From the NCBI GenBank assembly GCA_030867685.1, contig JAQOWU010000007.1, positions 2,356,001 through 2,420,000 on the forward strand: 64,000 bases of DNA, given 5' to 3'. Shown one piece after another: positions 993-60,469 of the stretch. Positions within the stretch are counted from its first letter, which is position 1; the number at the start of each line of letters is the position of its first letter. The position numbers were made by a program, and so were the translations under genes. The notes beneath the pieces were generated by a model. That model did not search any database. It was not told the DNA's origin and saw only the letters and a list, made by a program, of their open reading frames with translations. This DNA comes from Wickerhamiella versatilis (taxonomy: Eukaryota).

Positions 993-1029
993 GTGGGCTA
1001 TCTTGCATTGTCCAACCAGTCTCAGGTAG
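993..1029 (+). repeat. Copy of the 41-bp dispersed repeat (37 bp)
   Basis: GTGGGCTATCTTGCATTGTCCAACCAGTCTCAGGTAG; overlapping matches recur at about 11 other sites in the window. Confidence 0.9.
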
Positions 1030-1055
1030 CAAGCTAAGCTAGGGGTTAGAACACA

Positions 1056-2183
1056 TTAAAATTTCGCCAGACCTAGTTCAATGAGATAGGCCAGGGCCAG
1101 CTTCACATGTTGAACCACGTGGTTAAAGTCAATACGGTCGATGGTGTCCAGCTCGTTGTGCCCCACTCTTGGGAATCCTGGATAATTCACAATCTCATTC
1201 GCGCGCTCCATGGCAAACGCGGCTGGATAGCCATGGATGTACGCCGAGTAGAAGTCCGAACAGGCATACCCACACGAAAAGAGGGTGTATGGCACATCGG
1301 TGTAATCAGTAACCAGCAGCTTTAGGTAGTTAGTGAGCTCAGGACTGACGTTGTCAGTAACTAGGCGGATTTCATCGCCCACTTCACCCCGGTACCGATT
1401 GGAGGCACCCGTCATGTCTTGTTCAAGCATCGCCTTCACACTCACGTTGCGCTCAGCATATTCTGCAAACACATCGAGCGATCCCAGCAACCCAATCTCC
1501 TCTGCACTGTACCAGTGGAGCTCTAGTGAGTTATTGGGCTTAAACCCAGACTTCGAAATGATCCTAAGCGCTTCCACAAGTGTGACGGAACCACTGCCAT
1601 TATCGTCGGCACCAGGAGCTCTTCCATTGTAGAAGTCGCCCAAATTAATTGAATCAAGGTGCGCACCAATAACTACCACATCATCGGGATTCTCGGTGCC
1701 GTCGATATGGACAATCAGGCTCTTCTGCTTCCAGTCGGCATGGTCCACTATTCGCACATCGATGTCAGGCCTTCCGGCAGTGACTTTCAGAATCAAGTTG
1801 TAGAGCCACAATGAGCTTTGAAGACCGAGCTCAGACTTGCAAAACCTTGTATAGAAGGATGAGAACTCAAAGAGGTTGTCAAATAGGTTTTGCCGCCTGA
1901 TATCGGCCTGCAACGCATGAACAAGGTCATGGTATACCGTTTTCTTGGGAAAGGAGCTGACAGTAGCAACGCGGCTTGATGCTAGCCCATCTGATGGCAA
2001 CTCGGGGTGGGCAGTCACATCAATGAATGGCGTTCTGGATGTGAGCAGCTCGTGAATACCAAGGAAATCGGTCCATGTACGAACCCCACCATCAGTTTCT
2101 ATCAGTCTCAACTCATCGTGAAGCAATTGCTGCTCTGCTGCTATGAAACCCAGCCAGGGCCAGATCTTTGTGAGTCTCACCAT
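1056..2183 (-). CDS. Secreted M28E leucine aminopeptidase
   Basis: Short N-terminal hydrophobic leader. Motifs GAHLDS, GADDNGSG, AEEIGLLGS, DMTG and CGYACSD. Confidence 0.9.
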   Translation of the reverse strand: MVRLTKIWPWLGFIAAEQQLLHDELRLIETDGGVRTWTDFLGIHELLTSRTPFIDVTAHPELPSDGLASSRVATVSSFPKKTVYHDLVHALQADIRRQNLFDNLFEFSSFYTRFCKSELGLQSSLWLYNLILKVTAGRPDIDVRIVDHADWKQKSLIVHIDGTENPDDVVVIGAHLDSINLGDFYNGRAPGADDNGSGSVTLVEALRIISKSGFKPNNSLELHWYSAEEIGLLGSLDVFAEYAERNVSVKAMLEQDMTGASNRYRGEVGDEIRLVTDNVSPELTNYLKLLVTDYTDVPYTLFSCGYACSDFYSAYIHGYPAAFAMERANEIVNYPGFPRVGHNELDTIDRIDFNHVVQHVKLALAYLIELGLAKF

Positions 2184-2312
2184 CTACGATATTAGATTAT
2201 TCAAGGGATTCGTGGGCTCACGTGATGCTAATTGATAACCAAGCAAAGTCGAAGTCAGGAAAGCAGGTTCTGATTCATCTTTGCAGTTTTACACATGCTA
2301 GGGGTATCTATG

Positions 2313-2648
2313 CTAAAAGATCGGCTGGCCTAGAGCTGCGGGGTCCCGTGTGGTCAATGGGATCGTCCCACCTGCACCATTAGAGACTCCCAGTACCAAA
2401 ACTTCTGACTTTTCCGGCCCCATTTTCATAGTGCCAAGATTGATTATGCAGATAACCTGGCTTCCCTCGAGCTGTTCTGCCGAGTAGTTCGTGTAAGCCC
2501 CGCAGGATACCTTTGTCCCTATCTCCGGCCCAAAGTCAATTGTGATCCTCCAGGTGGGTTTGCGAGTTTTGCTTTCCTCAACCTTTACAATTGATCCGAC
2601 CCGGATATCCAAGGATGAGAATGAGTCAAAGGCTGCGATATCTTTCAT
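2313..2648 (-). CDS. csaA: CsaA / Trbp111-like OB-fold tRNA-binding chaperone, bacterial type
   Basis: LDIRVGSIV, IDFGPEIG, NY...EQL.G.QV...INL and SEVLVLGV in a stand-alone 111-aa protein. Confidence 0.85.
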   Translation of the reverse strand: MKDIAAFDSFSSLDIRVGSIVKVEESKTRKPTWRITIDFGPEIGTKVSCGAYTNYSAEQLEGSQVICIINLGTMKMGPEKSEVLVLGVSNGAGGTIPLTTRDPAALGQPIF

Positions 2649-2666
2649 TTACAGGGGATGACAAAC

Positions 2667-2684
2667 CTGCCTGAGACTGGTTGG
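2667..2684 (-). repeat. Partial copy of the 41-bp repeat, 18 bp upstream of the csaA ATG
   Basis: CTGCCTGAGACTGGTTGG matches the reverse complement of CCAACCAGTCTCAGGTAG at 17 of 18 positions. Confidence 0.8.
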
Positions 2685-8638: not shown

Positions 8639-8666
8639 CAGAAACTGGTTGGCTGAAATCAAGATG
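8639..8666 (-). repeat. Degenerate copy of the 41-bp repeat
   Basis: The minus strand reads ATCTTGATTTCAGCCAACCAGTTTCTG versus consensus ATCTTGCATTGTCCAACCAGTCTCAG. Confidence 0.5.
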
Positions 8667-9259: not shown

Positions 9260-9817
9260 GTGCTGCGAACTGTCTCGGTCTCAGGAATTGGCATTAAAAG
9301 TCTACAGCTTCGGTATGTACTATGGCTACCCTAACCGCGTCAGATAGCTTGTTGCATATCTTTTATAATATGTTCTCCTATGGATACCTTATAATGGTGA
9401 AAAGTATTTAAAGTGGTAGAATTTTTCTTCATTAATCCAACGTTTTTTGCCAGATTATATACTCCTGATAACCTTATTCCCTCCCTCGGGACTGGATCAG
9501 TGTACATAATATAAACATCTTTACCTAAGAAGTGTTGCCCACTGTTTACGAATATTGGCAAATCCCAACTATTTACAAGACATCGATAAGGGTAGATGGG
9601 AAATTTTATTCGAAATACACCTTAAATTGAATAGATCTGCATTAATACGTTAAATCTATAATCTTTACACCAGTGGAACTTGGTCACACCCTCACAACGT
9701 GTCAGATCAGAAGATTGCAGATCTTATTCAGATGAGACATGTGGAATAACCCCTCCGACGCTCAGACCTTTGTTGTCATCGATGTTTTATGAGTCGTATC
9801 ATTAGCGAATAGAATTG

Positions 9818-10310
9818 TAAGCTAGGTTTTGTCCAAGAGAGAGTAAGGAACGGTCCCGACACAGGATATTCACCAATTGCAACCGCCCTTTGGCGTGAGA
9901 TTTTGTAACGAGTAATCCCAAAATTGTGGCTATATCCGTCGCGCTTGACGAACTGGTGGTTACTGTCCGGCAGATCGCGGGCAAAGAGCTTGAATTGACC
10001 GAAGTCAAATGCTGCAAGTTTCGTCGAGGGAGAGCTATTTCCAGCCTACTAGAAACTACCACTAGCCAAGATCCGAAGTATATTTCGTGGATAGCATAGG
10101 GCATGTTTTCCACCAGACAGGATCCAATATACATGGTCTGTGAGGGTAATGATGGCATTCTTATCTTTCCCCTCAATGATCCATCCTGAGACTGGTTGGA
10201 ATCGGAATATAAGTTCAACAAGGGAAGTCCAACCGTTTTCTCGGTGCGGACATTTTCAATGCTCTATAGGACGTTTCTAACCCCATGGGGACCCCGTGCA
10301 GCGTGTTATC
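9818..10310 (-). pseudogene. Decayed tandem paralog of the neighbouring aldose 1-epimerase
   Basis: DNA aligns colinearly with 11297-11870 (e.g. AGAGAGAGTAAGGA.CGGTCCCGACACAGGAT). Translation gives GYSHNF...RAVAIGEYPVSG versus GYDHNF...RVVAIVEDPVSG, and NTLHGVP versus NALHGGP. Contains stops and indels; boundaries approximate. Confidence 0.85.
10185..10200 (-). repeat. Partial copy of the 41-bp repeat inside the galM pseudogene
   Basis: CCTGAGACTGGTTGGA, a 16/16 match to the reverse-complement consensus. Confidence 0.7.
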
Positions 10311-11110
10311 AAGGTCTTTGGTAGGCATGATAGTGCTGAAATACCCTGGGCAGCCACCGCATGCATCGTAACACTGCGCAGTCTTCAGGAAACAAGAGAA
10401 GTTGGTGTCCTGGCAGCAATAGTGAGAGTAGAAATACGCCATATTTGATTCTCTTGGTTCAAGCATCTTGAGGTTAGCAAAGACACTACGTTCGAAGCCG
10501 AAGCAATACGAAAGAGGATCGGGTAATACAGTTAGAACCAAATGCATTTTGCAATTGCTTTGTCCTTATTTATGGCTGATTTTCAGCCCTATTCAAAAGT
10601 ATTTCCTGGTCTATAGCCGTCCCACATTGTTACTAAGCAATGACTCCCCGCATTTTCCCCAGCAGGCCATGCAAGGAACGGTTACGGTGATTAAAAGCAT
10701 TAGCAGAAGCTTTAAAGAGGAAGTAAATTGTTGGCTACGTATAGATTTAGGTTTTGCTCACTGTGCCCCAAATTTTGCAGGGTGATGATGATGTGTCGTG
10801 GGTCTATGTGCTGATAAGAGACACCGCACAACGATAAGACCTGCCCGTAGCATGAAGCACTGCTTGCTATCCACATGAGACTGAGCGCTGAAATCATGGA
10901 ATGTATGCGCAGTAGATCCCGGTATTTCAAGTTGGGGATTCAGGTGGATGAAGTACTACATAACGTCGTGTATTTTGTTTGCTCAGTAGTCGTTGTGAAC
11001 GCTTCACGAATTACATCTGCTGCGATGTCTTGGCTTAGACATGCTTTTGTACTTGTGCTTGTGCTCACGCTTGGGAGTGCACTGTTGGAGCTCTCACAAA
11101 AAGAGTTGAC

Positions 11111-12235
11111 TTACTTGGTACTGAACTGGTACGTGATGTAGTTTTTGTAAACTTCCCCAGGTTTCAAGAGAGCGGAACCAAATTCAGGTCTGTTCGGAGT
11201 GTCGGGGAATATTTGGGGCTCGAGCACAAATGCGTCGCCTTGTCGATACTTACGGCCACTCGTGCCTACAATTGTCCCATTGAATCCATTGCCGGAGTAG
11301 AACTGAAGACCTGGCTTTGTAGAAGAGAGAGTAAGGACCCGTCCCGACACAGGATCCTCAACAATGGCAACCACCCTTTGCTCTGCAGCCTCGTGGCGAC
11401 TGATCACAAAATTATGGTCGTATCCCTGGCCATTAGTGAGCTGCTCATCGTTAACGCGGACGTCCTGGCCAATAGGCTTGGGCTTGCGGAAATCGAACGG
11501 TGTACCTGTGACATTATTGAAATCGCCGGTGGGGATGCCTGTGGAATCCACTGGGAGATACTCATCTGCATTGATTTGAATATAGTTATCATAGACAGTA
11601 CGAGACCCTTCGCCAGAAAGATCCCAGTATGCGTGGTTAGTGAGATTGATGATGGTTGATTTATCCGTTTCGGCCGTGTAGTTGATGTGTAACTCGTTGG
11701 AGTTCGTCAACGAATAGGTTACCACCACCTTAAGATTTCCCGGGAACCCCTGATCGCCATCAGGGCTAAGATAGCTGAGATTCACACTAATCGCGTCCTT
11801 TGTTTCGTCAATTCCGGTGATGTTCCATAGAACGTTGTAAAACCCTTCAGGCCCCCCATGCAGCGCGTTCCCCCTATCATTCGTGGGAACCTGGTATTCG
11901 TGATCCCCTATACTGAATTTTCCCTTATGAATGCGATTCGCATACCTCCCCACACAAGATCCGAAGTATTGGGGATTCTTGACGTCGTCCGTTATGTTTC
12001 GGTAGCCCAGCACGACGTTGGCTAGGTTTCCTTCGCGATCTGGAACATACAGAGCATGTAAAGCTGCACCCCAGTTGATGATCTCGGCCTTCACACCGTT
12101 TTTATTGGTTAGTGTCACACTGGTAACCTGTCTGCCATCGGGAAGAGTGCCAAATACACTCCGATGAGAGCTACCTGAGGCAAAGGTTGTGGCTGCCGCA
12201 CCGCCGAGCGAGGGCAATAAACTAGAATTCTTCAT
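11111..12235 (-). CDS. galM: Aldose 1-epimerase (mutarotase), stand-alone bacterial type
   Basis: GRYANRI, LHGG, DGDQGFPGNL, NLTNHAYW, GYDHNF, PGLQFYSGN and LEPQ.FPD.PN. Confidence 0.93.
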   Translation of the reverse strand: MKNSSLLPSLGGAAATTFASGSSHRSVFGTLPDGRQVTSVTLTNKNGVKAEIINWGAALHALYVPDREGNLANVVLGYRNITDDVKNPQYFGSCVGRYANRIHKGKFSIGDHEYQVPTNDRGNALHGGPEGFYNVLWNITGIDETKDAISVNLSYLSPDGDQGFPGNLKVVVTYSLTNSNELHINYTAETDKSTIINLTNHAYWDLSGEGSRTVYDNYIQINADEYLPVDSTGIPTGDFNNVTGTPFDFRKPKPIGQDVRVNDEQLTNGQGYDHNFVISRHEAAEQRVVAIVEDPVSGRVLTLSSTKPGLQFYSGNGFNGTIVGTSGRKYRQGDAFVLEPQIFPDTPNRPEFGSALLKPGEVYKNYITYQFSTK

Positions 12236-13959: not shown

Positions 13960-14844
13960 CCTTTTTTTGTCGCTTAATAAATCCGATGGACGATCAGCTG
14001 TCACAACCTTATTCTTTTGCGTTAATAAATAATCTCGAGATATTATTAAATATCTGCCTGTAGCAGCCAACTAGCTGTTTTCCGGAGTCTAATTCGGGTA
14101 AATTTAAAGCAACAGGCATGAATTATATATAGCAATAGCCAGAAATGAATTTCATACGGTGGAAGGCGCTTCGCCTAGGATTGCTTCCAACTAGGATTGG
14201 ATCACAGCAAGCATTAGGGTAGGGGTTGGTTGCTGTCCTTACTAACCTTTGAATATCCAAAAAACAGACCTTGGCATGTCCAAGGGCTTTATGTTTTCTG
14301 CTGTATGACTACTCCTAAGCTTCCTCTTTGGCTTTGGAATTATTGAAAGTACAACTGGACGTTCTCACCGCGTCACTCTTAATATTTCGCATATGTGTTA
14401 AGTAGAGCAATACCCTGGGTCAAAGATCTCACATCGAAATGGCATCGTATAATCACTATTTTAGGGCTACTAATACGAAACAACAAATAATGATTCGCGA
14501 TTAAGAGTGACTTATAAAGAGCGTCTAGTGTACTCCGAGCAATGGCTCCGCAGGCATGCCTGTGGTGTCGTCCGGCGTTAGCTCCTATCTGGGACTGGAA
14601 ACTGAATTGGCGGTTTTATGTATCTTAATTACTATCTTTGTGAAATATGTCTCGTCAGGCCAGGACACCTGCCGAATTCAACTAGGTTTTTCGCCTTCTA
14701 TAGTCTAATTTCCAGGTGAAATCAGTTGAATAGCTTTCTTTGGTACATTGGACGCAAAATTTTGGTACTATCATCTGCACCAGGTGTATTAACGGTAGAC
14801 TGGCCATTGAAATAGCTAGTTAGCTGTTTGAACTTCAGCATCAC

Positions 14845-21064: not shown

Positions 21065-21083
21065 GCAAGATTGCCCACCCCAC
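21065..21083 (-). repeat. Degenerate partial copy of the 41-bp repeat
   Basis: GCAAGATTGCCCACCCCAC versus GCAAGATAGCCCACTTCAC (16/19). Confidence 0.5.
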
Positions 21084-23613: not shown

Positions 23614-23640
23614 AGTGGGCTATCTTGCATTGTCCAGCCA
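23614..23640 (+). repeat. Partial copy of the 41-bp repeat, about 58 bp upstream of the GH3 ATG
   Basis: AGTGGGCTATCTTGCATTGTCCAGCCA, 26/27 to consensus. Confidence 0.88.
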
Positions 23641-38900: not shown

Positions 38901-39271
38901 CAGAGGTTGTCAGCCCCGGAGCGGTCACTAACAAATGCTATCAGTTTCCCATCTGGTGAATAAGTGGCTTGAGTATCAAATGCAAGACCGCGCGTTATTT
39001 GCTTTGCAGGTCCGCCATAAATGGGCATGGTATATAAATCGCCCAGCATGTCAAAAATTAACGTATCACCATCCTTAGAAACATCTAGAGACATTTGAGT
39101 TCCAGTCTTTGCGTGGATTCGAAGTGTCCTCTCTGCTTTTAAGGGCAGAGTTTCTCCGGGCGGTTGCTGTGGTCGACCATCCGACTCTTCAGGGTATATA
39201 GGGAACCCAGAGACGAGTATTCGTGATAAAAAATATATAAAGATGCAGAAATAAGAATTGAGAACCATCAT
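35990..39271 (-). CDS. Large amidohydrolase with N-terminal PD40/TolB-like beta-propeller repeats, bacterial type
   Basis: Repeated P.(W/Y)SPDG motifs, then IIPGLIDEHDH, GAHG and GTIEPGKFADLVIL..DPL; N-terminal signal peptide. Confidence 0.9.
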   Translation of the reverse strand: MMVLNSYFCIFIYFLSRILVSGFPIYPEESDGRPQQPPGETLPLKAERTLRIHAKTGTQMSLDVSKDGDTLIFDMLGDLYTMPIYGGPAKQITRGLAFDTQATYSPDGKLIAFVSDRSGADNLWISDLTGDNSRQLSFGNDDTVLASPAWSADGTSVYISRYMADYNNVQLWRYGLDGVSELLVPIVPNRGASRDVWQSSIGVAVSPDGVWIYYAKRIGGLDFDRLNSWGIVRRHLQTGDETLIVGNPSDQGKQEIAFRPAISPDGQLLAYQVHSNGENVLRVRNLSTGEDRKVYKPLDRDQLQASFWQDIAARYCFTPDGHSIVFSHDGGFEVVDLRNGIVSRHGIDADMRVDVGPSTRQNIIEESRSVQAHLVQAPMLSPDGRYIANMAMGRIYVQSTRHGSVTPHFSVDGPDSLSQPAWSPDGKDVVYVSWNEEFGGAVWVTPVDGSTPPRRISDRNAFYTAPSFLPDGQAIAVFRSPTLNRQQDIFEFPKVRASELVLLPLSDHVSSRFIAQGEIGGLPQFLRHSPSKIVVNENGGIALVDMSSGAVESMVKVVGPGWYFIPGTIQPVDDLRISPDGKWLLASAAQQLFLIEMPCDTKLIDLTDSTILKRRVTRSGVDYFGWQDSAKIYWSMGHKLYLRSLLDVLPLATGEPVIPDQDPKPREMQVFLPRAIPTKALLLRGGNVLTMNHENQIIHDADILLQQDRITNVGSRGSFPVPHGTRVLNASGQTIIPGLIDEHDHIAEIRREVLSRENWGLKVRLAYGVTTSFDPSTLSVDMLSYQDMLDAGLMTGPRLRSTGMAVFSMNRFTSLEDTSAVLQRYKQAGLKNVKEYRTGNRRVRQWMAMSALKNDLQPTTEGALSMKLDITQILDGYSGSEHALTATPLGDDVLGLLESMRTSYTTTLMITNGGLPASDWFVAHRHPAHDEKIRRFYPSVAIDKKLTGRPQLPLHDYNFLDIARDANRVVQSGGLLGIGAHGEVPGIGFHWEMEAHVMGGMSPIDVLHAATAGSAEAIGRLHDLGTIEPGKFADLVILNFDPLENIRNTMHIDKVMRNGFLYDGFLNQLWPENSQSKFDFFDFDTLYDIKNQI

Positions 39272-47562: not shown

Positions 47563-48193
47563 ACTAGAAATTTGCATATAACTCATCGTATTTTTCGACA
47601 GTTTGCTACTACGACCACTCACAAGGTCTCCATCGTACCCGTCTCGCCTGTTGCGAATTCTGCAACGTAATATATCTACCACTGCTAACTAGAAATGAAA
47701 AAAAAACACGGTTGGCGTTATTTGCTATGCTACATATGTATTAACAGCAAATCTTTTAAACCGCTTTGTCTTATAACATGGATGAGCTAGGGTACACCTT
47801 AGTAACTTCCTTGTGCCTAACGCTTTAAAAAAGTGCGGGTACTCTGCGGCCACTAGTCAGTCATATCTTAGCGTAGTCCGAAATTGGAATCACGTCATAA
47901 TACATCTTTTGGTGGATTTTGAGAGAAAAAATTATCCAGGCTGCAACTGAGGCCACGATGAAATATTGCAGTCCCCTAAATCTTTTTCTTGAAAGGATTT
48001 TCAAAATTCGAGTCCGTGCTGGCTCATTTAGTACTAGCTTTAATAATTAATATTCTTTCTCACGCCTCTTAGATATGTATTTTCCTTAATTTTTGACTCT
48101 ATGCCCTTTGCCAGTCACCAGAAAAACTTTGAAAAAACAGCAAGTATAAAGTTTACGCCAGATGTGTGGTGAAGAAGTTCTCTACAGAGAAGC

Positions 48194-48222
48194 AGCCCTC
48201 TTCACTACCTGAGACTGGTTGG
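48194..48222 (-). repeat. Partial copy of the 41-bp repeat spanning the unit junction
   Basis: The minus strand reads CCAACCAGTCTCAGGTAGTGAAGAGGGCT (28/29), running from the end of one unit into the next. Confidence 0.9.
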
Positions 48223-48289
48223 CTAAGCGAACAATTTATAGTAGACGTTGAAAACTGGATAGCGGTATCCCGTGGCAGTTACTAGTTGG

Positions 48290-48320
48290 GACTGGTTGGA
48301 CAATGCAAGATAGCCCACTT
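48290..48320 (-). repeat. Partial copy of the 41-bp repeat
   Basis: GACTGGTTGGACAATGCAAGATAGCCCACTT, 31/31. Confidence 0.9.
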
Positions 48321-48620
48321 TGTAATCTATTCTGATCAATTATTCGTGACTAAATCTATCGCATTGTAATAGCAAGAGTAAAACGTAAGCTATTCGAGAG
48401 CAAAATACGTATCGGGCTAGGGTTATACATACTCATCATACGAACTTTGTCGAGTACTGTCAAAAAATGTATTGAATTTTAGTTACAGTTTGCTTCCAGG
48501 TTTTTAGTTGCGGATAGCAGCCATTAACCTCAAGAAAATTTGTTTTTTGCGTTTTTATGCCTCTATTACTAACTCTGTTTTCAACTATAAAAAGGATTTG
48601 CCTAATTACTAAACTTCAAT

Positions 48621-48878
48621 ATGAAATTCCTACCTTTGCTAAGTCCTGTGCTGTTTTTTACTTCGGGAGTTGCTAGCCAGTCTACCTCATGCGACGAAAT
48701 TAATGTCTTTATCGTCGGTGATATCACAAAATGTGGAAGCCAAGCTACGAAGACCATCTCGTCATTGGCCAGCACCCACACTTCAAATGCAACTAACCAC
48801 ACGTCCAACCAAGCAAACGCTTTGCAAAGTCATTTTAGTGGGGCTGTTCTACTTGGGGTACTTATGGGCTTCCTCTAG
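48621..48878 (+). CDS. Small secreted, probably GPI-anchored protein (85 aa)
   Basis: Signal peptide, two Cys, S/T/N-rich middle and hydrophobic C-terminus; TATA-like TATAAAA about 30 bp upstream. Confidence 0.65.
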   Translation: MKFLPLLSPVLFFTSGVASQSTSCDEINVFIVGDITKCGSQATKTISSLASTHTSNATNHTSNQANALQSHFSGAVLLGVLMGFL

Positions 48879-48960
48879 ACGTATCTCAAGTTCAGATCGA
48901 CAGTTCTTATCTCAGTATATAAGTTAGATCCGCTAAATTTAAACGGTAAATTCGATGTAA

Positions 48961-49725
48961 CTAACTAGACGAAATTTTGACGTCAGTCTCAGACCTAGAC
49001 TCAATTCGGCTGTATACCATTCCAGGATGAACTATACAAAGACAGAGCATCAGTAACACCATAAATGCCCCGTCAAAAACATATTCAAAAATAGCATGTC
49101 GGAAAATATATCCACCAACTCCTTGGCCATATTCAGCCACCCGGTACACGTACCGGACAAGGAGAAAGCACACAGAAATATATATCACAATGAAATACGA
49201 ATTCCAACTGTGGAATGCACGGTCTACTGGCCTCAGCCTGCGACGAAGCGTTTTATGCATTTTTATTACAAGGAAACAGAAGACTGAGAGAAAAAGGAGT
49301 TGAACAGTAAAACCAGAAATGACTAGTGCTTTTCCCAACGTCTTCCTGCTCATGGACCCCAGAACTATACCGGATATCTGCAGGCCTAGAGACGCAATAT
49401 CTCCAATAACAAATACTGTTGACTGTGTACAGCTTCGTGAAAATGATAAGATATCATGGTCGAGCTTTCTCAGAAGCTTACCAAAAGAGAGGTAAATCGA
49501 AGCAGCCAGAAAAATTGGAGCAATGATGACTTGCACGGATTGTGAACCATCACCAGCAGTTGTATCGGCATATCCACTTAATTCCAGTATACCACCTATC
49601 ACAAACCACAGGATAAGCCAGTTTCTTTTCAAGAACATCATAAGCAAGTGGTAGCCGCTTAATAGGCCAAATGCTACAGCGAAAAACGTTGAAGCACCTC
49701 GTGAACTGATAATACCATCCGACAT
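48961..49725 (-). CDS. RTA1/Rsb1-like membrane protein
   Basis: IAPIFLAASIY, FVIGDIASL.LQ..G, R..YRVAEY.QG and YVFDG..M. Confidence 0.88.
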   Translation of the reverse strand: MSDGIISSRGASTFFAVAFGLLSGYHLLMMFLKRNWLILWFVIGGILELSGYADTTAGDGSQSVQVIIAPIFLAASIYLSFGKLLRKLDHDILSFSRSCTQSTVFVIGDIASLGLQISGIVLGSMSRKTLGKALVISGFTVQLLFLSVFCFLVIKMHKTLRRRLRPVDRAFHSWNSYFIVIYISVCFLLVRYVYRVAEYGQGVGGYIFRHAIFEYVFDGAFMVLLMLCLCIVHPGMVYSRIESRSETDVKISSS

Positions 49726-50325
49726 CGTTCTTTGGGGTGTTGGTGTGTAGTGAAGTTATTTATACATGATTAGTACCCTTGTTTAGGGTTTTTGAAAGAG
49801 CTGTAGAATCTTGACATCAAGAGAATGTGAGTTGTGATACAACTGTAGAAAGGCTTTTTTTGTGCAGCCTCGACCCGAATTTCTATCCGATATTCTTCTC
49901 TCAAGACCCTTCTGTATCTTTTGGTCCTGTTCTAAATTTAGCTTATTTTTTCTCCTAGCGCTGAAGAAACGTCTCGTCGCCTTTGTTCTTAAAATTTTCA
50001 CCATAATAAGTTTTTAATTTATTTCTGGTTTCTATAAGCCTAGTATTAGAACATGGTATAGACGCAAAGCCTTCTAGAGTTGGGACTCCCCACCCACCAT
50101 AGTGGCTTGGCACAAGTTGTCAGCTGTGTATATAAAACCCCAACCCTCTGTTGTTAGAGAAGATATTATTTGCTGTGTAATTATCGGGTATCACGATTAG
50201 AAATATATAATCGGCTAGATGAAGCTCTGATTTTTTTTTACTCTTTTATGAGTGCTGGGTTTTCAGGCAGCATGGTTTATATTGTGTCCACATATACCGA
50301 ATTCCTAACCGTTGGATAAAAAAAT

Positions 50326-50413
50326 AGTGGGCTATCTTTATGCCTCGCTGGAAATTGTCTATCTAATTTCAAGACATAATTTGGCCCATGGCACATCTTG
50401 CATTGTCCAACCA
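50326..50413 (+). repeat. Copy of the 41-bp repeat split by a 56-bp insert with duplicated ATCTT
   Basis: AGTGGGCTATCTT at 50326-50338, then ATCTTGCATTGTCCAACCA at 50395-50413. Confidence 0.8.
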
Positions 50414-51692
50414 AGGTGGCAGATATGCGCGGCTTTCAATCGCCTTCTTCTCAACGTTCTTTTAATGCTATGGGTAAGGTTCCCAGTAATTAACAGATTA
50501 CAGATCACGTACCAGAAACTCGAATTTCGAGAAATGAACCTAGGTTTCAATGGAATAGCATTAGCTTTATGACAAACGAAAAATGAAGTAGTTGTCAGTC
50601 CTAAAAAGACTGAAAAGAGTCTTCTAGATATATAATTTCAGGTGAATGGCATGGTATAAAATCTAATACGATTAGAACACTATTTTGTCTTCTAGCTTCT
50701 TATCCTGATACCTAGAAACGCTCGTAGGTGTGATTATGGACGTGGTCCTATCCCACTTTAATTAGGACATAGAGCCATTCAAGAGTTACTAAATTTCAGA
50801 AGAGATACTTTATTATTTTCGGCCATTGCGGTAAACAGTGCCTATAGCAACCTTGTGTCATCGCAGTGTAGTAGTTCTTGGTTTCGCATAAGGTTCTCGT
50901 CACTTCCATACTATAGAAAGCTGTTGGGAGCTCATACCATCCTGAATCGGAATATGCAAACATACTATTCACACACGTGACTTACTTTTAACATCTATTC
51001 CGACCTGCCTTCATGCAAAGAGTGCGCGTTTTAACGAAGGAGGCGGTGACCTTGATGAGTCATCTATTCTTATTAAACTTGGTCTTGACTCCTGAGAAAC
51101 ATTTAAATCAAGGGGGTCAGACTCAACCAAAGCAAAGAGAAACTTTAAAGCTCTCGTGTTTTCGGAAGATTATATACTGAAAGGATGACCCCTGCTAAGC
51201 CCTTGGCTGCAGCAGACTACGAAGGCATCCTTATGTTGGAGCTTCCTCTAGTCTCGATAGTAATGTTTAAGTGTTTTATTCCGGTGAAAATAAAAGTAAA
51301 ACTATTGCGCAGTGATCTGTTAATACCAGTAGCATAAGTGATCACGACGACTATTTGAAGTAGCAGTAACAAAGGCTTTGAGGGGTATACAAAAGTTTTG
51401 AGACGCGACAGCTATGTACTCCTGGCACAGGAAGGTGCTCATCAAGTCGGCGTAGGTCAAGCTATCATACACATACCTTGAAACCAGTACCCCCTGTGAA
51501 GATTAGAAATTAGGTGCAACCCCTTACTCCCACCAACCACGTGCCAAGGCGATTTTTGCAAGCAGCTTGGTGGCCATCGAAATACTAGTTTAAGCAAATA
51601 AATAATAACAAACAATAAGGTTCCATTGATTTTCAAAAAACTACGTACAATGACCCACTATGTGTATGGTTGGTTCGTGATTGTACGTTCTG

Positions 51693-52439
51693 TTACATTG
51701 TCATCTTATTCTTTTTGAGCGTTCTTCGTGCCCGGCGCGACCACATACTCTCACATCCTGCTCGATTCCGGTAGCTGTCGACTGCATATTGAATCAAACC
51801 CTTTTTCTTCCGAATTTCTGGATTCAAGCTTGCGAGGCGCCATCCGAGCTCGTTGTACATCTTTTCGAAGTCTTGCCGTTTTCCCTTGTACTGCTGAGGG
51901 GGGAGCGTAGCTTTCGGATATATGCAATTCTCTTGCCGGAAAGTCGTCGTTAGCTCATTTGTATTGAGATCATCGATATTACAGCGGATTCTGTACTTAC
52001 GGGTGGCACCGGTATTCGGGTACGTTATCATGAAAAAAGAAGGAGTGATGGATGAAGAGGATGTGGTAGACGAAGAGAGATTTGGAGATAAATAATTAGT
52101 AGTAGCATTCTGCTCAAAATTTACGGAATTTGCATGTTGCACTTCAGGTAAAGTAGCCGCGGGGTTGACTGCAGGATCCAACCACATGGCGGGGCTTAAC
52201 TCAAACTTACCTTGGTCCTGAGACCAGTAGTCGTCAACGGCCAAGTCATTGTAGAGCTTAAAGTCGATGGACTCTTCGGGTGGAGTAGCCAGGGAACTGA
52301 ATCCAGGATGTAAGCAAACTTCGTCGCTTAGCTCAAATGTGCCGCTGTCATGGTATTTGAGATCCAGATTCCGCAAATCGAGGGGTATCCAAGAGTTGTG
52401 GTGGAGTAACAGTGTTCGTGTCGATGTAATCGAAGGCAT
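51693..52439 (-). CDS. Fungal Adn1/DUF8032-type domain protein, paralog 1 (possible transcriptional regulator)
   Basis: C-terminal Y.IRC.ID...F..ENCIYP.A......YKG.R..FE...N..GW.LA.LNP....KKGLIQ.AVDSYRN..SRR.RR. Family assignment is from recall. Confidence 0.75.
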   Translation of the reverse strand: MPSITSTRTLLLHHNSWIPLDLRNLDLKYHDSGTFELSDEVCLHPGFSSLATPPEESIDFKLYNDLAVDDYWSQDQGKFELSPAMWLDPAVNPAATLPEVQHANSVNFEQNATTNYLSPNLSSSTTSSSSITPSFFMITYPNTGATRKYRIRCNIDDLNTNELTTTFRQENCIYPKATLPPQQYKGKRQDFEKMYNELGWRLASLNPEIRKKKGLIQYAVDSYRNRAGCESMWSRRARRTLKKNKMTM

Positions 52440-53451
52440 CCGGTTTACCCATCATCCTCCAGTAATGGTAGTCTTGAGGCTCTCGCGCCCCTTTGAGAGC
52501 TTTGCTTGACACACGGTAAAGATTAGCAGAAGTCATCATTGTTGTGGAGATACACTCCAATGTGCGCGCCTATTTTATACTATAGCGTTGCTAAATTTAC
52601 CAAATCGAGATTAGCGTCTGACAGAATACCTAACCCATGTAGCGTCCTCGTCGGACACGTCGGCGAGCAGTTATCTGCTGCTCAAGGGAGTCATCTACAA
52701 GATATTATTCTTTATGGCCTCAATTGTATCAAGGTAATAAGTTATAGTGGCTCAAAAACTAGTTGAATTTGCTACCAGGTATCAGATACTATGCAAGGGC
52801 GGAACAGACCCATGAGTCGTGGCTAGGTTTCCTCTGATTGAGGCGGTAAGACAATCAGATCTAGGAGGCTGTGAGCAGGGGAATTCTGATCCTTAAAAAG
52901 CTATGAAGTTCTATTCATTCGCGCAACCTTTTGGCTTAGGTGTAAAAAAGAACTCACTTGAATTGTCCTAGCCTATAATGTCTGAAGAGATATCGGTAGG
53001 CTTAATTTCATCTAGAATGCTGACTAACTGAGTTGTTTTTCGAGGATAACGTCAAACGCATAACCTATTTGGTTACTTCAAGCGTTATAAAGAATCGTCT
53101 TCACAGGGAAGTTTATGGCGATTTCGTGCGGGAACATGAACATGGGTAGCTGTGATTCAGAATATTCGATTCTGGGTATAATGGCTACCTGATTCAGTAA
53201 TAATACTATCCGTAATTGTGATTTTGCATCCTACTAAGTCAAATACCGGCTTCAAAGCTTACATCCCTGGTAAAGACATTAAGAGTTCTATGATCTGCCG
53301 ATAGGTAACCCCTCTTTAGCAGATGACGTATCATAGAGTGATAGCAAGATATGTTCGGTAAAAATCAACAGCAGCACCATATAATGAGACGTATTGGAAC
53401 ATAAAAAGGGGTTTTACGGTCTGGCAGATGTTTTGCATCCTTTGCGCATCT

Positions 53452-53499
53452 TCCAACCAGTCACAGGTTGGTGAGGTGAGCTATCTTGCATTGTCCAAC
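53452..53499 (+). repeat. Copy of the 41-bp repeat longer than one unit (TCCAAC...TCCAAC)
   Basis: TCCAACCAGTCACAGGTTGGTGAGGTGAGCTATCTTGCATTGTCCAAC; period 42 here, with about 5 differences from consensus including one extra base. Confidence 0.88.
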
Positions 53500-53763
53500 T
53501 CACTCATGAAAAGGAAATCTCACTAACTCCAGAAATTTTCGTTACAGTATACTCTAACATCCAAAACTTATTGAAAAAAAATATATTATCCGTAAAGTAA
53601 ACTAATCTTATAAGCATACCCATGATTTCGCAAGACAGACTTCTCAGAGAAGTGCTGCAGCTTATCTATCACGGGCAGTCACATGTTGCTAAAATGCAAA
53701 TAATACTATAGCATGAAAGAATGACGTCTCTTGGACGAGTATGTGGGCTTGGTTGTGACTTTG

Positions 53764-54582
53764 CTATCGATGACTCTTCTTATTTTTGCACACGGACCTT
53801 CGAGCTCGACGCGACCACATGCTCATATCTCCGGTTCGGTTACGGTAGTTATCGACAGCGTACTGGATAAGACCTTTCTTTCCCCGGATTTGAGGGTTCA
53901 AGCTTGCGAGGCGCCATCCCAGTTCGTTGTACATCTTTTCGAAGTTTTGCCGTTTGCCCTTGTACTGCTGAGGGGGGAGCGTAGCTTTCGGGTATATGCA
54001 ATTCTCTTGCCGGAAAGTTGTTGTGAGCTCATTTGTATTGATATCATCGATATTACAGCGGATTCTGTACTTACGGGCGGCACCGGTATTCGGGTACGTC
54101 ATCACAAGAAACACAGGACTACTAGACGTTGATTTGTCCTTCTGCTGGTTTTTGGTCTCTTCCTCTTCTTCCAAATGCATAATGTTGTGATCACTTTCCG
54201 GTAACGGCGGCGTATTTGCATGGTATTGACTGGCACCGAATCCATCAAGCGACAAGTAGTTTCCAATATCAAACGGATTTTGAGGAGCTGTGCCTACGCC
54301 GCACATCACATCAGGAAGTTGCAATGTTGGTGGACTATTTTCAGGTGCTACTCCGTCAAAGGGAACGGAGAAATCAGTTTCACTCGGTGAGATTCCATAA
54401 ACCGGCAGATGTGTCGTTTCTTGTGTAAATTCAATAAAGGGGAGATCTAAGTCCAGCTCACTACCATCCATGGGTGGGGTTAGAACATGCTGCTGGTATG
54501 TTGAACCCCCTGAACTGATACTCGGCTGGTCAGCTTGTATCCACCAAGGATCCTGTAAAGTTTTTATGGGTTCCTCGTACAT
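53764..54582 (-). CDS. Fungal Adn1/DUF8032-type domain protein, paralog 2
   Basis: Same C-terminal domain as 51693-52439, nearly identical in its core. Confidence 0.75.
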   Translation of the reverse strand: MYEEPIKTLQDPWWIQADQPSISSGGSTYQQHVLTPPMDGSELDLDLPFIEFTQETTHLPVYGISPSETDFSVPFDGVAPENSPPTLQLPDVMCGVGTAPQNPFDIGNYLSLDGFGASQYHANTPPLPESDHNIMHLEEEEETKNQQKDKSTSSSPVFLVMTYPNTGAARKYRIRCNIDDINTNELTTTFRQENCIYPKATLPPQQYKGKRQNFEKMYNELGWRLASLNPQIRGKKGLIQYAVDNYRNRTGDMSMWSRRARRSVCKNKKSHR

Positions 54583-56931
54583 AGTTTCTGGTGGAACAAT
54601 GTCGCGACGTTTTCAGTATATGTTATATTCCTCGGCGTTCTCCGAGATAAACGCGGGTGGCTTATAGTTGTTAGGAGCCAAATTTTCGTGCATACCCTAA
54701 CCTTTTCGAGCTGTCGGATACCGCCCGCCGAGCAACTTCGCGTTTAGTTAGAAACTTTTTTGTTCGTCAGATAGCTTAAATACATTTTAGTGTGTATTAG
54801 TATTCCTCCAATTAGGCTCTCAAGTGACTGGTAGAGAAGATAACAGTAATCTCTCTATGCAAGTGCGGGACAATACCAACGGCCCGGTTAGGGTTGCTAT
54901 CTTAATGCTTGTTTTGATCAAACGGCTAACACGCGTGCCAGAAACTCCTAGGTTCAATTAATCGTTATTATACAATGTAATATAAAATTATATTATATTT
55001 TTTCGCTGTCTGGGCGTCATCATCTTGTTACCGAGTGATCTTACATGTGCTGACCTGGTCGATCACTAGATGATTAAGCTCGATGAGCAAATCTGGGGTT
55101 GTCCTCGTAAGGGAAACGCCGTATTTATACATAGTGAAACAGACATGGGAGTCAATGTAGCTAACAACCTTTATTTCCGTATTCTAGGCCTATGGTCGGA
55201 CGCGACATATATCTACAAGAATGTAGTGGTTGGAAAGACGCCGTGCGTTCTTAACGCTTTAATTACATAAACCTGACTATTTCGATCTTAAAAATCCTTA
55301 TAATACATGTCTGGCATCTAATTGGACAATATTGGTAGGTTGGACGCCTGGTTTTATAAAATTTATATTCACCACCAACTACCACAAATATTATTGGATA
55401 GCATAGTGCCTTCAAGAACTCGACGTTACATTACGCGGTACATGTAAATGACGTATAGTTAAGCAATGCTTAAGCATTGTGTGACGTCACTTTGGCCCTT
55501 GAAACGAAAACGTCGGGTTAAGCACTCAACAAGAACATAGCAAGACACTCTTCACGGAAAGAAATGTCATTTATTTAATAAAATATCCATACGAAACGAT
55601 TTCGTGGTTTCCTTTGCTTTTCGGGTGCCAGCCCAAGAAAATAGGTAGGACCTGTAATAACGGTTATTAACGTCTGTCGAGATAAAGGATCATTCCAGGT
55701 AATATTGGCCAGACAAGAAAATGATTAGTACGTCCAGTGAAATCATTCGCTTGCTGACTAGAGGTGGGTGGTGCTTTCATGTGACGGGTTAAGTAGTACT
55801 ACGAATACCTTTGTGAGACCCAATCCGGGCCTCTAGAAGATCGGAACATCCTGGATCATTGCCTGTCGCATATAGGTCTTTACCGTCAAAACATATGTAC
55901 CAAGATTCACTGTCATTGTCCTTAATCTATTTCATACTTGACTGCTTGGTATAATCAAAATTTTGTATAAAAGTATGATATCCTTCAATACCATTTACTG
56001 CCGAACTATTACCTGTAATCATTCAGGCATCACCACCATACCTGATACAGAATGACGGTAACTTCTGGTGAAAGCCCGGGCCAACCTAATACAGAGATAT
56101 GCTTTTTTCCCTGTGAAGAAGAACATAATCACAATAGCTAGCTCCAGAGGATGGCTGGTAGGCAGGGTTATATATCTCGAGTCGGTGGTTGTGTAACTCA
56201 GGAACCGCGGAACACACGACAAAGAGTGCATATGCATACAAGCGCGACTATCATCCAGAGGACATTAGCAGCATCCTCAGTATGCAAATAGAAAAACCAT
56301 ATGGTATTGTATACGCTAGTAATATGTTGAGCACGCTCTACTGGCTTATATTTTAGAACATTATAAGATAACAAATCGTTATATAATGTGTGGACCCTAA
56401 TCACACTTGAGCGCGTCCTGCGCACCACCCAAGGCCCTCTAATTTATTGTTTACAGATCTCCCCTTCCATAATAAAGCTTTGTATGGCACATGCGATATA
56501 TTTGTAGTTGATACTAAAATAGGCAGTGACCTCAAGCAGGTCACCAGGGTTGTGAATGTTCCCCGTAAACATCCTAAAATATACATTGGGCTGATAATGA
56601 GTTGGCGATAGGTGAGTGAATCAGTTGTGCTATATCTCCAAGAGAATATGAGGCACTAAATCAAACGCTACTTTTGTTTCGAGTCTAGACTTTTTTTGAA
56701 ATTCGCGACATTTTAGGCATAAGAGCTAGTGGCGCTTTCACTGATAGCTGTAGTTATGTTCAATTTAGTAAATAAGTATGTATGTCGGATATCACGAAAA
56801 TAAAAAAAAACTATTTCCTGATTTTTTTTCTCTAATTCAAGATAATGTGTCAAAATACCAGAGACCTCTATTAAAATCTGTTCTAGATAACCCTTTAATT
56901 AAATAGAATATAACCGAGTCCAGTTTTTCGG

Positions 56932-57957: not shown

Positions 57958-58113
57958 TATCGCTTAGTCAATTGCTGGCGAGGTAGTAGCCGTACTCACT
58001 CGTACTGTAAACAGACAAGAACTCTTAGCTGTTCCAAGTGTTATAAATATCTGTCAAATATTTGTCAATAATACTATATAATGAATTAATTTTATGGTGA
58101 AGATTCATTCTAT

Positions 58114-59562
58114 TTAAATTTGCCTGATTCGATATAACCCAGTTGAATGGCGAGGAATATCTGCACTCCATGAGCCGTGAGGCTGAATTGTCCCAACCTT
58201 CGAGCCAAATAGTGCTGAGTTGTTGGTCTCAATGCCCTTAGCGTAACTAATGTCACTTGAATTATACGGAAGTGTGATGTTCCTTAAGCTGGTCCCTCTC
58301 TTACTGCTTGAACTATCGATGATTGCGGCAGCAGTGTCATTGCTCATTCTGTTTGCCCATAAATCATACACGTCCCATTTTTTAGATAATTGGTTCACTG
58401 CAGGCCACATATCCAGAAATAAATCATAAAGTTCAGCCTTCAGATTTGCTGTGCTATTTCCATTGTTAATGAGGGCAAAGACGAAGTCTCCGTTGTCCAT
58501 CTCACGAACCCATAGCTGGTGATTGCACTGACCATATTGATCCTTGTCATCACAATCTCTAAGCCATACGCGATATGCAGCGGTCGCAGAGGGGTCTTGG
58601 TTGAGAGCAATCACTGCAGGGTTTGAATAGATAGAAAGATCTTTGGGTGTAATCTCATGGACATTAGTGCCTATAAGAAGTGGTGATGATAAGAGTGACC
58701 ACATTGAAAAGTGTGTCACATACTCATTGTCGTCCTGTCCTCCATTGCCAACTTCAAGCCCGTCCATATCATTAAACCAACCCTTCTGCGTCTTTGACTG
58801 TATAGCAGCCATCATTCCAATAATATTCATAATACTGCAATGATACCCTGGATACTCGCATGGCGATTCTGTGCAAGGACATCGACTATCTGGTCGATTG
58901 AAAAAATCATATATGTCGCCACTCATACGCCCTGAGTTTGAAATTCCTGTAGCCCAAGTGTATGTCTGATCCTCACCCCAATTGCACAATGAATAAACTA
59001 TAGGCCGTCCAGTAGCATTAAGGGCTTCAGACATGGCATTATAGCGATCAAATGAAGTTTTCTGTGTGCCTGACTGTCCTCGGTTGAAACAATTGTCATA
59101 CTTTAGGTAGTCCACATTGTTATCAGCGAAAAATTGTGCATCTTGAGTTTCGTATCCGAGTGATCCAGGATACTTGCCACACGTATACTCCCCAGCACTC
59201 GAGTACATTCCAAATTTAAACCCGAGATCATGTAGGGTATCAGCTACATAACGCATACCGTGTGGGAATTTCAGGGGATTCGGAACCTGGTAGCCACTGT
59301 TATTTCGGCCAATTGACCAACAGTCGTCAAGAACTATGTAATTGTAACCCAAGTCTCTTAGCCCGTAATCGATAATAGTCTGTGCCGTTGACAATAGTAA
59401 TTCTTCACTCACATCGCATCCGTATGCATTCCAGTTGTTCCATCCCATCTGTGGTACTAAATTAAGACCGTTGTAGGAGGTTGCACCAGGTATGACTACT
59501 TGATTGTCCCCATTTAGGTATGCGATCACTTGATTCAGAAGAAATATGGATTTCAAAAACAT
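58114..59562 (-). CDS. MEL1: Secreted GH27 alpha-galactosidase (melibiase)
   Basis: NGLNLVPQMGWNNWN, LDDCW, YSSAG..TC..YPGSLG, DYLKYDNC, YSLCNWG and ND.D.LEVGNG. Confidence 0.93.
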   Translation of the reverse strand: MFLKSIFLLNQVIAYLNGDNQVVIPGATSYNGLNLVPQMGWNNWNAYGCDVSEELLLSTAQTIIDYGLRDLGYNYIVLDDCWSIGRNNSGYQVPNPLKFPHGMRYVADTLHDLGFKFGMYSSAGEYTCGKYPGSLGYETQDAQFFADNNVDYLKYDNCFNRGQSGTQKTSFDRYNAMSEALNATGRPIVYSLCNWGEDQTYTWATGISNSGRMSGDIYDFFNRPDSRCPCTESPCEYPGYHCSIMNIIGMMAAIQSKTQKGWFNDMDGLEVGNGGQDDNEYVTHFSMWSLLSSPLLIGTNVHEITPKDLSIYSNPAVIALNQDPSATAAYRVWLRDCDDKDQYGQCNHQLWVREMDNGDFVFALINNGNSTANLKAELYDLFLDMWPAVNQLSKKWDVYDLWANRMSNDTAAAIIDSSSSKRGTSLRNITLPYNSSDISYAKGIETNNSALFGSKVGTIQPHGSWSADIPRHSTGLYRIRQI

Positions 59563-60447
59563 CCTTAACCTGAGATCCTACAAGATGCGAAGAAGTGCTT
59601 GGGGTTTTATTTAAATAGCTCATCTTGAAAATGATTTGTCGTAAAGTACTGTGTGTGTAAGGCAATAATGCATAATACGAACTCACCATCCAAAAAGAGT
59701 CGACGTATAGGGTAGGGCTAGTAACGTATCTGATCTCTATTCTTCTATTACATGCTAATTCGTGGAAATAAGTGAAATGCTTCAGAGGATGATGCTAAGT
59801 CCCCTATTATCTGTTACTTTGAAAATATTTGTTATATTCTTCAAATATCTACAGCCAGCCTTTGACGAAGTTTACCCCGCATTGAATGACTCATATGCAA
59901 AGTAATGTCATGGCAAGTTGCTAGATAGTGTAAATAGAATACTTGCTTCTGAATACCCCTGAATACCCCTGAATTGGCCAAAATATGGGGATACTGGTTA
60001 TTGGCGCCTGTGTATTCATATACTGATGATATCTAGCTTCTTCCTATCCTAATACTTGAGATAATACAGGTATTCCTCCGTTATTTGAATGGGATCAGGT
60101 AATCAAAATAGGGTTGTGGTAGCCGGGGTATACTCCATTTGTCATTCTAAGAATACCTGGCAAACAGCTCCGCTAAATGCTTGATGGCCATTTGTAGACG
60201 CTTTTTTAACCGTATCAATTTAAAATAGCTTGATGAGAGCAAACCTCGTGTTCGTCACAGGTAGACAGTCTCGTTCAAAGTTTATTAAACGGCAGGTTTG
60301 TCTTTATGCCGCAGGACATAAAGCATCCAGTTGCATAATGAAATAGATCTAATGGAGGAGCATTTATTCGATACAGGTAGCAACAGTTATTGTAATGCTG
60401 GCTCAAATTGCATGGAATCTCGCTATGTACGAGCCAAAAGAGCCTTT

Positions 60448-60469
60448 CAACCAGTCTCAGGTAGTGAAG
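60448..60469 (+). repeat. Partial copy of the 41-bp repeat
   Basis: CAACCAGTCTCAGGTAGTGAAG, 22/22. Confidence 0.88.

Follow-up and report, generated by a model that had tools for sequence, protein, structure and literature searches.

The locus and its repeat

The DNA analysed here is a 64,000-nt stretch of contig JAQOWU010000007.1 of Wickerhamiella versatilis (the window), and the host is a yeast of the Wickerhamiella/Starmerella clade. To our knowledge, no other yeasts carry as many horizontally acquired genes as these do, and we know of no mechanism that integrates foreign genes in them; the lineage is also poor in DNA-repair genes. Proteins encoded in this stretch are 63-88% identical to those of a sister isolate. 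The window has a subtelomere-like, decaying gene content with pseudogenes, and at least one of its genes is clearly bacterial-like; the clade is reported to gather its foreign genes in long chromosome-end domains (PMC13376923). Dispersed between the genes, across at least 60 kb of the window, is a 41-base repeat, whole or in pieces, which is a real family. Its copies, with their positions in the unit and their alignment scores, are as follows.

993-1029, plus strand: near-complete unit (positions 1-37), 37/37 identical, score 37; in the spacer separating two convergent genes, with the stop (1056) of an M28 peptidase ORF 27 nt away
1056-2183, minus strand: the M28 peptidase ORF
2667-2684, minus strand: right-half fragment (positions 20-37), 17/18 identical including an exact 15-mer, score 16; in a divergent promoter spacer
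10185-10200, minus strand: right-half fragment (positions 19-34), 16/16 identical, score 16
23614-23640, plus strand: left-half fragment (positions 41-26), 26/27 identical, score 25; 58 nt upstream of the ATG (23698) of a broken GH3 gene's first ORF
48194-48320, minus strand: composite locus, gapped alignment of 3.2 units over 138 columns, 70% identity, score 40; in a spacer between convergent thioredoxin and RTA1 genes
50326-50338, plus strand: first 13 nt of the unit, score 13, at chance level alone; 56 nt before a strong copy
50395-50413, plus strand: positions 8-26, exact, score 19
53446-53499, plus strand: 1.3 units head to tail (position 13 to position 24 of the next unit), 87% identity with one gap, score 38
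60448-60469, plus strand: right half plus the first base of the unit that follows (positions 21-1), 22/22 identical, score 22; 188 nt downstream of a GH20 gene

The search model was a fourfold tandem of the 41-mer, aligned to both strands of the window, and six nulls (the reversed window and five shuffles) gave best scores of 13-17. Eight loci (993, 2667, 10185, 23614, 48194-48320, 50395, 53446 and 60448) reach or come near the top of this range, and we refer to them below as robust; those at 993, 23614, 48194-48318, 50395, 53446 and 60448 exceed all six nulls in the tandem-model alignment. The copies at 2667-2684 and 10185-10200 are borderline, at a score of 16 each, and contain an exact 15-mer and 16-mer, respectively; the former was kept despite scoring at the top of the nulls, because exact 15-mers are not expected by chance. 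An earlier note on this DNA had tiled a longer list of fragments onto one 41-nt circle, which holds for the eight robust loci; 8639-8666 (score below 12), 21065-21083 (score 13) and 50326-50338 are at chance level against the six nulls. The robust copies occur in both orientations, five on the plus and three on the minus strand, and the repeat blocks are about 96% identical overall amid unrelated surrounding DNA.

All eight robust loci lie outside intact ORFs, just as the earlier note had it, in a window of which ORFs of at least 120 aa cover 0.60. Their positions relative to genes are inconsistent and include promoters, 3'-3' spacers and one pseudogene. The proximity to start or stop codons (20-80 bp) that had been described for several copies applies to two robust loci, 993-1029 at 27 nt and 23614-23640 at 58 nt; other copies lie 188-1280 nt downstream of stops. 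A cis-regulatory promoter motif was considered and rejected for these inconsistent positions and orientations, in particular because two loci (993 and 48194-48320) sit between convergent 3' gene ends.

Two loci have a more involved structure. The fragment at 10185-10200 sits inside a decayed paralogue of the adjoining aldose 1-epimerase gene, 14 nt from a 21-codon deletion and frameshift, and is colinear with the intact copy of that gene. This colinearity with paralogous coding sequence speaks against insertion at this site, which is not clearly an insertion at all. The composite locus contains one full unit, decayed in its right half (48279-48320), and a right half that continues 7 nt into the next unit (48194-48222), with about 56 nt of weakly aligning sequence between them. 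Perfect blocks of 29-31 nt adjoin barely alignable stretches, which is odd for a single decayed array. For this locus and for 50326-50413 we considered a single unit that an insertion had split while duplicating its target; at 48194-48320 this was rejected, since 48279-48320 is itself a full decayed unit.

Polarity and head-to-tail structure

The starts of the copies fall at unit positions 41/1 (four loci) and 19-21 (four loci), and their ends are ragged. Of the differing registers described earlier, the ragged ends are therefore confirmed, whereas the starts are not random and group at these two points. Starts at two registers together with ragged ends fit polar copying off a short template. 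Read-through of the unit junction, previously seen in two copies, is borne out at 53446-53499 and 48194-48222, and head-to-tail iteration is found both in the 1.3 units of the former and in the 3.2 decayed units (70% identity) at 48194-48318.

Nothing beyond the unit is common to the copies. A comparison of 10 loci with 400-nt flanks confined the similarity to the unit, in agreement with the lack of common flanks first described, and no shared sequence beyond about 54 nt was found in the window flanks or in contigs from public sequencing runs. Target-site duplications were not found, the best flanking direct repeat being 6 nt, at one of nine intervals; as a control, direct repeats of at least 6 nt flank 245 of 2000 random intervals. 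Neither terminal inverted repeats nor LTR-type ends were found at the copies, the fixed end has no poly(A) or simple tail, and no hairpin was found, a copy folding no better than its shuffles (fold z-scores -1.4 to +1.6). Scans of the window for tRNA, tmRNA and Rfam families gave no matches at gathering score, and Rfam at E values up to 10 gave only noise at two repeat loci. A Pfam scan of 29 ORFs revealed neither a reverse transcriptase nor a transposase. A tandem or circular source, as opposed to a fixed-ended element, had been proposed at the outset; the absence of shared flanks, target-site duplications and inverted ends or hairpins, with read-through in both the window and public-run contigs, upholds it. 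The fragments come from a 41-nt source capable of head-to-tail copying and from no longer element, a conclusion that these data support.

Copies in public sequencing runs

Many more copies exist elsewhere in the genome, at dozens of loci. The copies at 48194-48320, 50326-50413 and 53446-53499 are present in each of four public runs, and about 100 further contigs with unrelated flanks carry the 41-mer. In one of the runs (X1), 115 contigs matched a 5.5-kb stretch of the window, 52 of them fitting only partly. In a consensus of 13 contigs from this run, the left half is followed by the right half and then by about 12 nt of the next unit, six contigs have a unit end immediately upstream of a unit start, and nine break off at AGTGGGC with unrelated sequence after it (agreement 0.48). 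Among the 24 of 121 rows listed for the four runs, consensus agreement at the loose ends is about 0.4-0.65 beyond the unit or beyond about 1.3 units.

Depth has to be read with care. Bin depths in X1 reached 1370 and 2766 against about 21 for a single copy; these are per-base means to which short, overlapping k=31 contigs contribute more than once. Some tens of dispersed copies could therefore account for the summed depths, which show neither that a tandem array exists nor that it is absent. An early estimate of 350-600 copies was dropped for the same multiple counting. Every contig that spans the joint of left and right halves has a depth close to that of a single copy (in X1, 21-35 per contig), and no high-depth contig across the unit joint was found in the four runs; in a branched repeat, contigs built at k=31 may lack the length to reveal one.

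Origin of the copies

What has to be explained is a family with head-to-tail iteration, clustered starts and ragged ends, lying at intergenic sites with unrelated flanks and carrying no transposon hallmarks. We tentatively favour, at somewhat less than an even chance, that the copies are templated break-repair inserts from a small template of 41-nt period, with telomerase as the most likely copier. Breaks in non-coding DNA would be repaired with short templated inserts left behind, each a polar copy of a single small template with a 41-nt period. Synthesis would begin at either of two registers, ...AGTGGGCTATC... or ...(T)CCAACCAG..., and would cover a distance that varies between copies, as a rule no more than about 1.3 units and now and then two or three rounds. 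If telomerase is the copying machine, the 41-mer would be the telomere unit of this yeast, with the copies as short interstitial telomeric sequences like those described in mammals. Insertion at breaks, the RNA nature of the template and the involvement of telomerase are what we infer in this explanation, and the fallback of the earlier note, a small template used in repair, comes close to it.

Several other explanations have to be weighed. First of all, the copies could be a non-telomeric mini-repeat, either the extreme 3' tail of a non-LTR retroelement or of a small retroposed RNA, or a minisatellite seed spread by ectopic conversion. The polarity of the copy ends would suit such an origin, for on the opposite strand the 3' ends of the copies are fixed and their 5' ends ragged, a pattern known from target-primed reverse transcription; so would the dozens of loci with unrelated flanks, the weak strand bias, the lack of likeness to known yeast telomere repeats, the lack of a high-depth tandem contig among the k=31 contigs of the public runs and the report that the repeats of W. 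versatilis are 'unclassified' only, at about 0.2% of the genome (PMC13376923). We nevertheless consider it somewhat unlikely, since there is no longer shared body, similarity ending at the unit and loose-end agreement falling to 0.4-0.65 past about 1.3 units, since the fixed end carries neither poly(A) nor a simple tail, and since target-site duplications, and a reverse transcriptase or transposase among the 29 ORFs scanned, were not found.

Second, selection around a core CCAACCA in non-coding DNA could maintain a functional protein-binding element, such as an insulator, a silencer or an origin-type site. CAACCA is indeed present in all eight robust copies in the tandem-model alignments, and the post-hoc probability, computed from their lengths, that five sub-unit fragments drawn randomly from the circle would all contain it is about 0.007; near-identical blocks amid unrelated DNA and a strictly intergenic location point the same way. 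A binding element is made improbable by conserved blocks of 26-37 nt, which far exceed the length of a binding site, by a core that lies at the edge of the half-copies and not at their centre, by inconsistent gene-relative positions in both orientations, and by the abundance of truncated copies.

Third, the copies could mark relic chromosome ends, places where telomerase capped a broken end that afterwards grew by capturing new, partly foreign DNA, the accretion model of the earlier note. The decaying, subtelomere-like gene content with pseudogenes, the bacterial-like gene, the foreign genes reported in the clade's long chromosome-end domains (PMC13376923) and the outward-facing copies that flank the RTA1 gene, at 48320 (minus) and 50326 (plus), are all in keeping with it. 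Stepwise accretion at one chromosome end is not supported by the robust copies, which face both ways instead of all pointing toward one end, and a capped end would need an array, whereas the copies are mostly of one unit or less; we regard relic ends as very improbable. Finally, a transposable element (MITE, solo LTR or retroelement tail) finds no support, as target-site duplications, terminal inverted repeats, LTR-type ends and a longer common body were not found.

The 41-mer as a candidate telomere unit

Within the preferred reading of templated repair, the 41-mer is possibly a telomere unit, and we treat it as putative. It would not be the longest on record, contrary to the suggestion that it would exceed any known unit, since Pichia norvegensis is reported to have a putative motif of 43 nt (PMC7857110); the unit reported for Pichia kudriavzevii is 28 bp (PMC6053246). 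A chromosome-level study of the clade, which describes assemblies of three Wickerhamiella/Starmerella species, looked for telomere motifs with k from 5 to 60 (PMC13376923), the default range of its tool being 5-30 (PMC10100673).

The candidate G-strand, that is the strand with fixed starts, has 11 G and 9 C, with G+T at 23/41; its direction is as expected for a G/T-rich strand, with a bias far weaker than that reported for the P. kudriavzevii unit (PMC6053246). Local alignment to tandem units showed no significant likeness to those of Yarrowia lipolytica and P. kudriavzevii or to TTAGGG (167-168 of 500 shuffles were as good on the forward strand), which is weak evidence because yeast telomere units diverge fast. 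The telomerase RNA gene was not found in the window (Rfam, 0 matches). The junction and left-half core gave 0 matches in metagenome, prokaryote-genome and viral contig collections, which probably do not include this yeast, and a search of about 8.4 million full texts turned up no strings of the 41-mer. A telomere unit of any Wickerhamiella or Starmerella species was likewise not found in the texts of papers; the supplementary tables of PMC13376923 and PMC7857110 probably list values.

Some observations speak against telomerase as the copier. One alignment site on one template would not predict two start registers, and the weak G-strand bias, the lack of likeness to known yeast units and the roughly single-copy depth of contigs spanning the joint also count against it. 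That the 41-mer is the telomerase unit, and that telomerase routinely patches breaks in chromosome-end domains rich in horizontally acquired genes, leaving single-round copies with template-defined starts, is in our view unlikely. Were it true, the same activity could cap incoming foreign DNA and help to fix it, and telomerase would be linked to the exceptional horizontal gene uptake of the clade.

Comparison with known systems

A polar templated repeat between the genes of a chromosome-end domain would be a concrete trace of DNA breakage and rejoining, and it resembles several known systems in part. Like MITEs, solo LTRs and the tails of 5'-truncated non-LTR elements, the copies are dispersed, multi-copy and intergenic with one sharply defined end; unlike them, they have no target-site duplications, terminal inverted repeats or hairpin and share nothing beyond about 54 nt. 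If the template is not telomerase RNA, they would constitute an unclassified repeat family, and the genome is reported to be nearly free of transposons. Interstitial telomere tracts occur at the boundaries of subtelomeric blocks, as at yeast X/Y' junctions and in human subtelomeric duplicons. The copies are similar in being short, putatively telomere-like tracts between blocks of a variable, gene-family-rich domain, and differ in spanning at least 60 kb in both orientations with flanking blocks that are not duplicated.

With the long telomere units reported for budding yeasts (28 bp and a putative 43 nt), the 41-mer shares a budding-yeast host and a length within their range; it differs in that no terminal array was seen, in its weak strand bias, in having no significant sequence likeness to the P. 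kudriavzevii unit and in a host of a different order-level lineage (Wickerhamiella/Starmerella). The main text of PMC13376923 uses none of the terms 'interstitial', 'healing' and 'double-strand break'. In mammals, telomerase is reported to insert short interstitial telomeric sequences at sites of double-strand-break repair (PMC2246262, PMC8537989). The copies described here agree with these, as reported, in being short head-to-tail copies of a single small templated unit, spread over non-coding sites unrelated to each other, facing either way and lacking both target-site duplications and shared flanks; they differ in starting in two registers and in having a unit of 41 nt instead of 6, which is why most copies amount to one unit or less. 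Should the template prove to be telomerase RNA, they would be the first budding-yeast counterpart of the interstitial repeats made by mammalian telomerase, with a unit long enough for each copy to record where its synthesis started and where it stopped.

The repeat and its copies

The dispersed 41-nt repeat family is real and still unexplained. The interval 993-1033 departs from the 41-mer of the earlier note at three positions, with no match of any kind in 100 shuffles, and mechanical repeat finding recovered the family independently (direct families D7, D9 and D10; inverted pairs I1, I2, I5, I7, I14, I16 and I21). A fourfold tandem of the 41-mer was aligned to the window on both strands; nulls from its reversal and from five shuffled versions gave top scores of 13-17. 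The first six loci listed exceed all nulls; the last two score at the upper end of the null range, and exact matches as long as theirs are expected far below once per window.

Robust loci of the 41-mer in the tandem alignment
993-1029, score 37, 37/37 identical to the unit
23614-23640, score 25
48194-48318, score 40, 3.2 units over 138 columns, 70% identity
50395-50413, score 19
53446-53499, score 38, 1.3 units, 87% identity
60448-60469, score 22
2667-2684, score 16, contains an exact 15-mer
10185-10200, score 16, an exact 16-mer

Three of the twelve fragments first proposed lie at chance level, namely 8639-8666 (score <12), 21065-21083 (13) and 50326-50338 (13), the last of which has the usual start and is 56 nt from a strong copy. 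The remaining matches scoring 12-14 are noise-like and mainly within ORFs.

The family is polar, with sharp starts and variable ends. Copies start either at unit position 41/1 (...AGTGGGC; 993, 23614, 48318 and 50326) or at positions 19-21 (...(T)CCAACCAG; 2667, 10185, 60448 and the distal piece at 48222), and end raggedly at positions 24-26, 29, 34-37 and then 1-7 of the next unit; CAACCA is present in all robust copies. The description of the copies as lying in different registers is therefore right in part only.

Position and flanks

All eight robust loci lie outside ORFs of at least 120 aa, which make up 0.60 of the window; the probability of all eight missing them by chance is about 0.4^8. 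Two loci, 993 and 48194-48320, are each between convergent gene ends; other copies follow stop codons at distances of 188-1280 nt or sit in divergent promoters, an arrangement incompatible with a simple promoter motif. The copies could be protein-binding sites, but this reading is forced in view of the conserved blocks of 26-37 nt, a common core at the edge of half-copies and the inconsistent gene context. The copies fold no better than shuffles, and the repeat matches no tRNA or Rfam family.

The robust copies divide into five on + and three on -, and these mixed orientations disfavour the DNA accretion that the copies had been taken to mark, if it proceeded stepwise at a single chromosome end. 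When ten loci were compared with 400 nt of flank each, similarity was limited to the unit, bearing out the view that the copies share no flanks, and flanking direct repeats were no longer than in 2000 random intervals. Derivation from a longer mobile element is unlikely, the copies being without a common body, target-site duplication or inverted ends.

Gene content

The window carries genes of subtelomere type: an invertase, an aldose epimerase with its decayed paralogue, OPT and MFS transporters, a broken GH3 gene, a PIR protein, an alpha-galactosidase and a GH20 hexosaminidase.

Selected features of the window
9806-10454, - strand, decayed aldose 1-epimerase paralogue with in-frame stops, a frameshift and a 21-codon deletion, adjoining the intact gene (11111-12235)
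23698-25734, + strand, GH3 beta-glucosidase-type gene broken into two or more ORFs, with the N-terminal domain at 23698-24300 and the C-terminal domain at 24667-25734, probably a pseudogene
28697-29686, PIR1-like cell-wall protein gene, its PIR repeats from seven in-frame 63-nt tandem repeats (28914-29377)
35990-39271, - strand, PD40-amidohydrolase, 1093 aa, named matches all Sphingomonadaceae at no more than 60% identity
51693-52439 and 53764-54582, - strand, two tandem paralogous ORFs of 248 and 272 aa, 84% identical over 300 nt

This content fits the long, AT-enriched, gene-transfer-rich 'end' domains described for the clade in PMC13376923, whose main text lacks the words interstitial, healing and double-strand break. 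Long stretches free of ORFs of at least 120 aa (25735-28696, 54583-56931 and 13960-14844) match the sparse and decaying gene content that such chromosome-end domains are reported to have.

For the bleomycin-hydrolase gene, the nearest named relative comes from Wickerhamiella sorbophila (64% identity), with Blastobotrys and Trichomonascus next. The PD40-amidohydrolase gene, judged by its Sphingomonadaceae-only named matches, was probably acquired horizontally, so that at least one window gene would be of bacterial origin; its best database match falls short of full identity (94%), suggesting divergence between strains. A related yeast (matches P0002 and P0122; window 34040-39271) has homologues of the bleomycin hydrolase (88% identical) and the PD40-amidohydrolase (63%). 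For each of the two, the longest contig listed measures 30,818 nt; they are probably on the same contig, in which case the bacterial-like gene would be syntenic and evolving much faster than its native neighbour. The tandem paralogous ORFs have no Pfam family, and in public contigs their copies collapse or branch at 51762-51998.

Copies in public sequencing runs

Ten runs each contain over half of a test stretch of 10 kb, including two of isolate type (~10-11 Mb) and several food-fermentation metagenomes. Contigs of four public runs were aligned to 48100-53600. In one run, X1, the two bins with the repeat have mean depths of 1370 and 2766, against ~21 elsewhere; these sums count short, overlapping k=31 contigs repeatedly and thus neither prove nor exclude a tandem array. 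Of 115 aligned X1 contigs, 52 fit in part only, and their loose ends are mutually discordant (agreement 0.41-0.65), placing the repeat at many loci with unrelated flanks.

A consensus of 13 X1 contigs runs from the left half of the unit through the full right half into ~12 nt of the next unit. Six contigs have a unit end immediately upstream of a unit start, and in nine unit similarity ends at AGTGGGC with unrelated sequence past it. Because every contig spanning the joint of the two halves is at about single-copy depth (21-35 in X1), no high-copy tandem array is demonstrated. In one contig, from another locus of the same genome, two left-half copies stand 53 nt apart, and the 35 letters between them bear no relation to the right half. 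Repeated left halves with foreign DNA between them, like those at 50326-50413, can thus occur.

By rough inference, other window loci (993, 23614, 60448 and so on) would figure among the ~50 partly fitting contigs, and the window therefore appears several-fold enriched in the repeat relative to a 10-Mb genome. Pattern scans gave no match in metagenome, prokaryote-genome and viral collections.

Proposed templated repair and comparison with telomerase

The best reading, held tentatively and at somewhat below even chances, is that the copies are templated break-repair scars. The polar pattern of the family, in which starts are defined, ends are ragged, length is usually capped at around 1.3 units and a second or third round occasionally follows, is what would come of copying from a short template of bounded length.

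Telomerase is the probable, though unproven, copier. The case for it is weakened by the weak strand bias of the 41-mer (G 11, C 9), its lack of likeness to known yeast telomere units, the two start registers and the lack of a tandem array in the public-run contigs. It is weakened too by the 16-nt copy at 10185-10200, inside the decayed epimerase paralogue; this copy is colinear with the coding sequence of the intact paralogue and appears to be no clean insert, although the 21-codon deletion with frameshift is only 14 nt away.

Telomerase is made plausible by the long telomere units of budding yeasts, 28 bp in Pichia kudriavzevii (PMC6053246) and, putatively, 43 nt in Pichia norvegensis (PMC7857110); the latter exceeds 41 nt, contrary to the suggestion that the present unit would be the longest. 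The clade study widened its telomere-motif search to 60 nt and 60 kb per chromosome end (PMC13376923), the tool's defaults being 30 nt and 1 kb (PMC10100673), a mere hint that telomere motifs of the clade are long. Plausible, too, is the mammalian precedent, in which telomerase leaves short interstitial repeats at break sites (PMC2246262 and PMC8537989). The pattern of the 41-mer copies is similar to that of a telomerase template, which comprises one unit and a terminal direct repeat.
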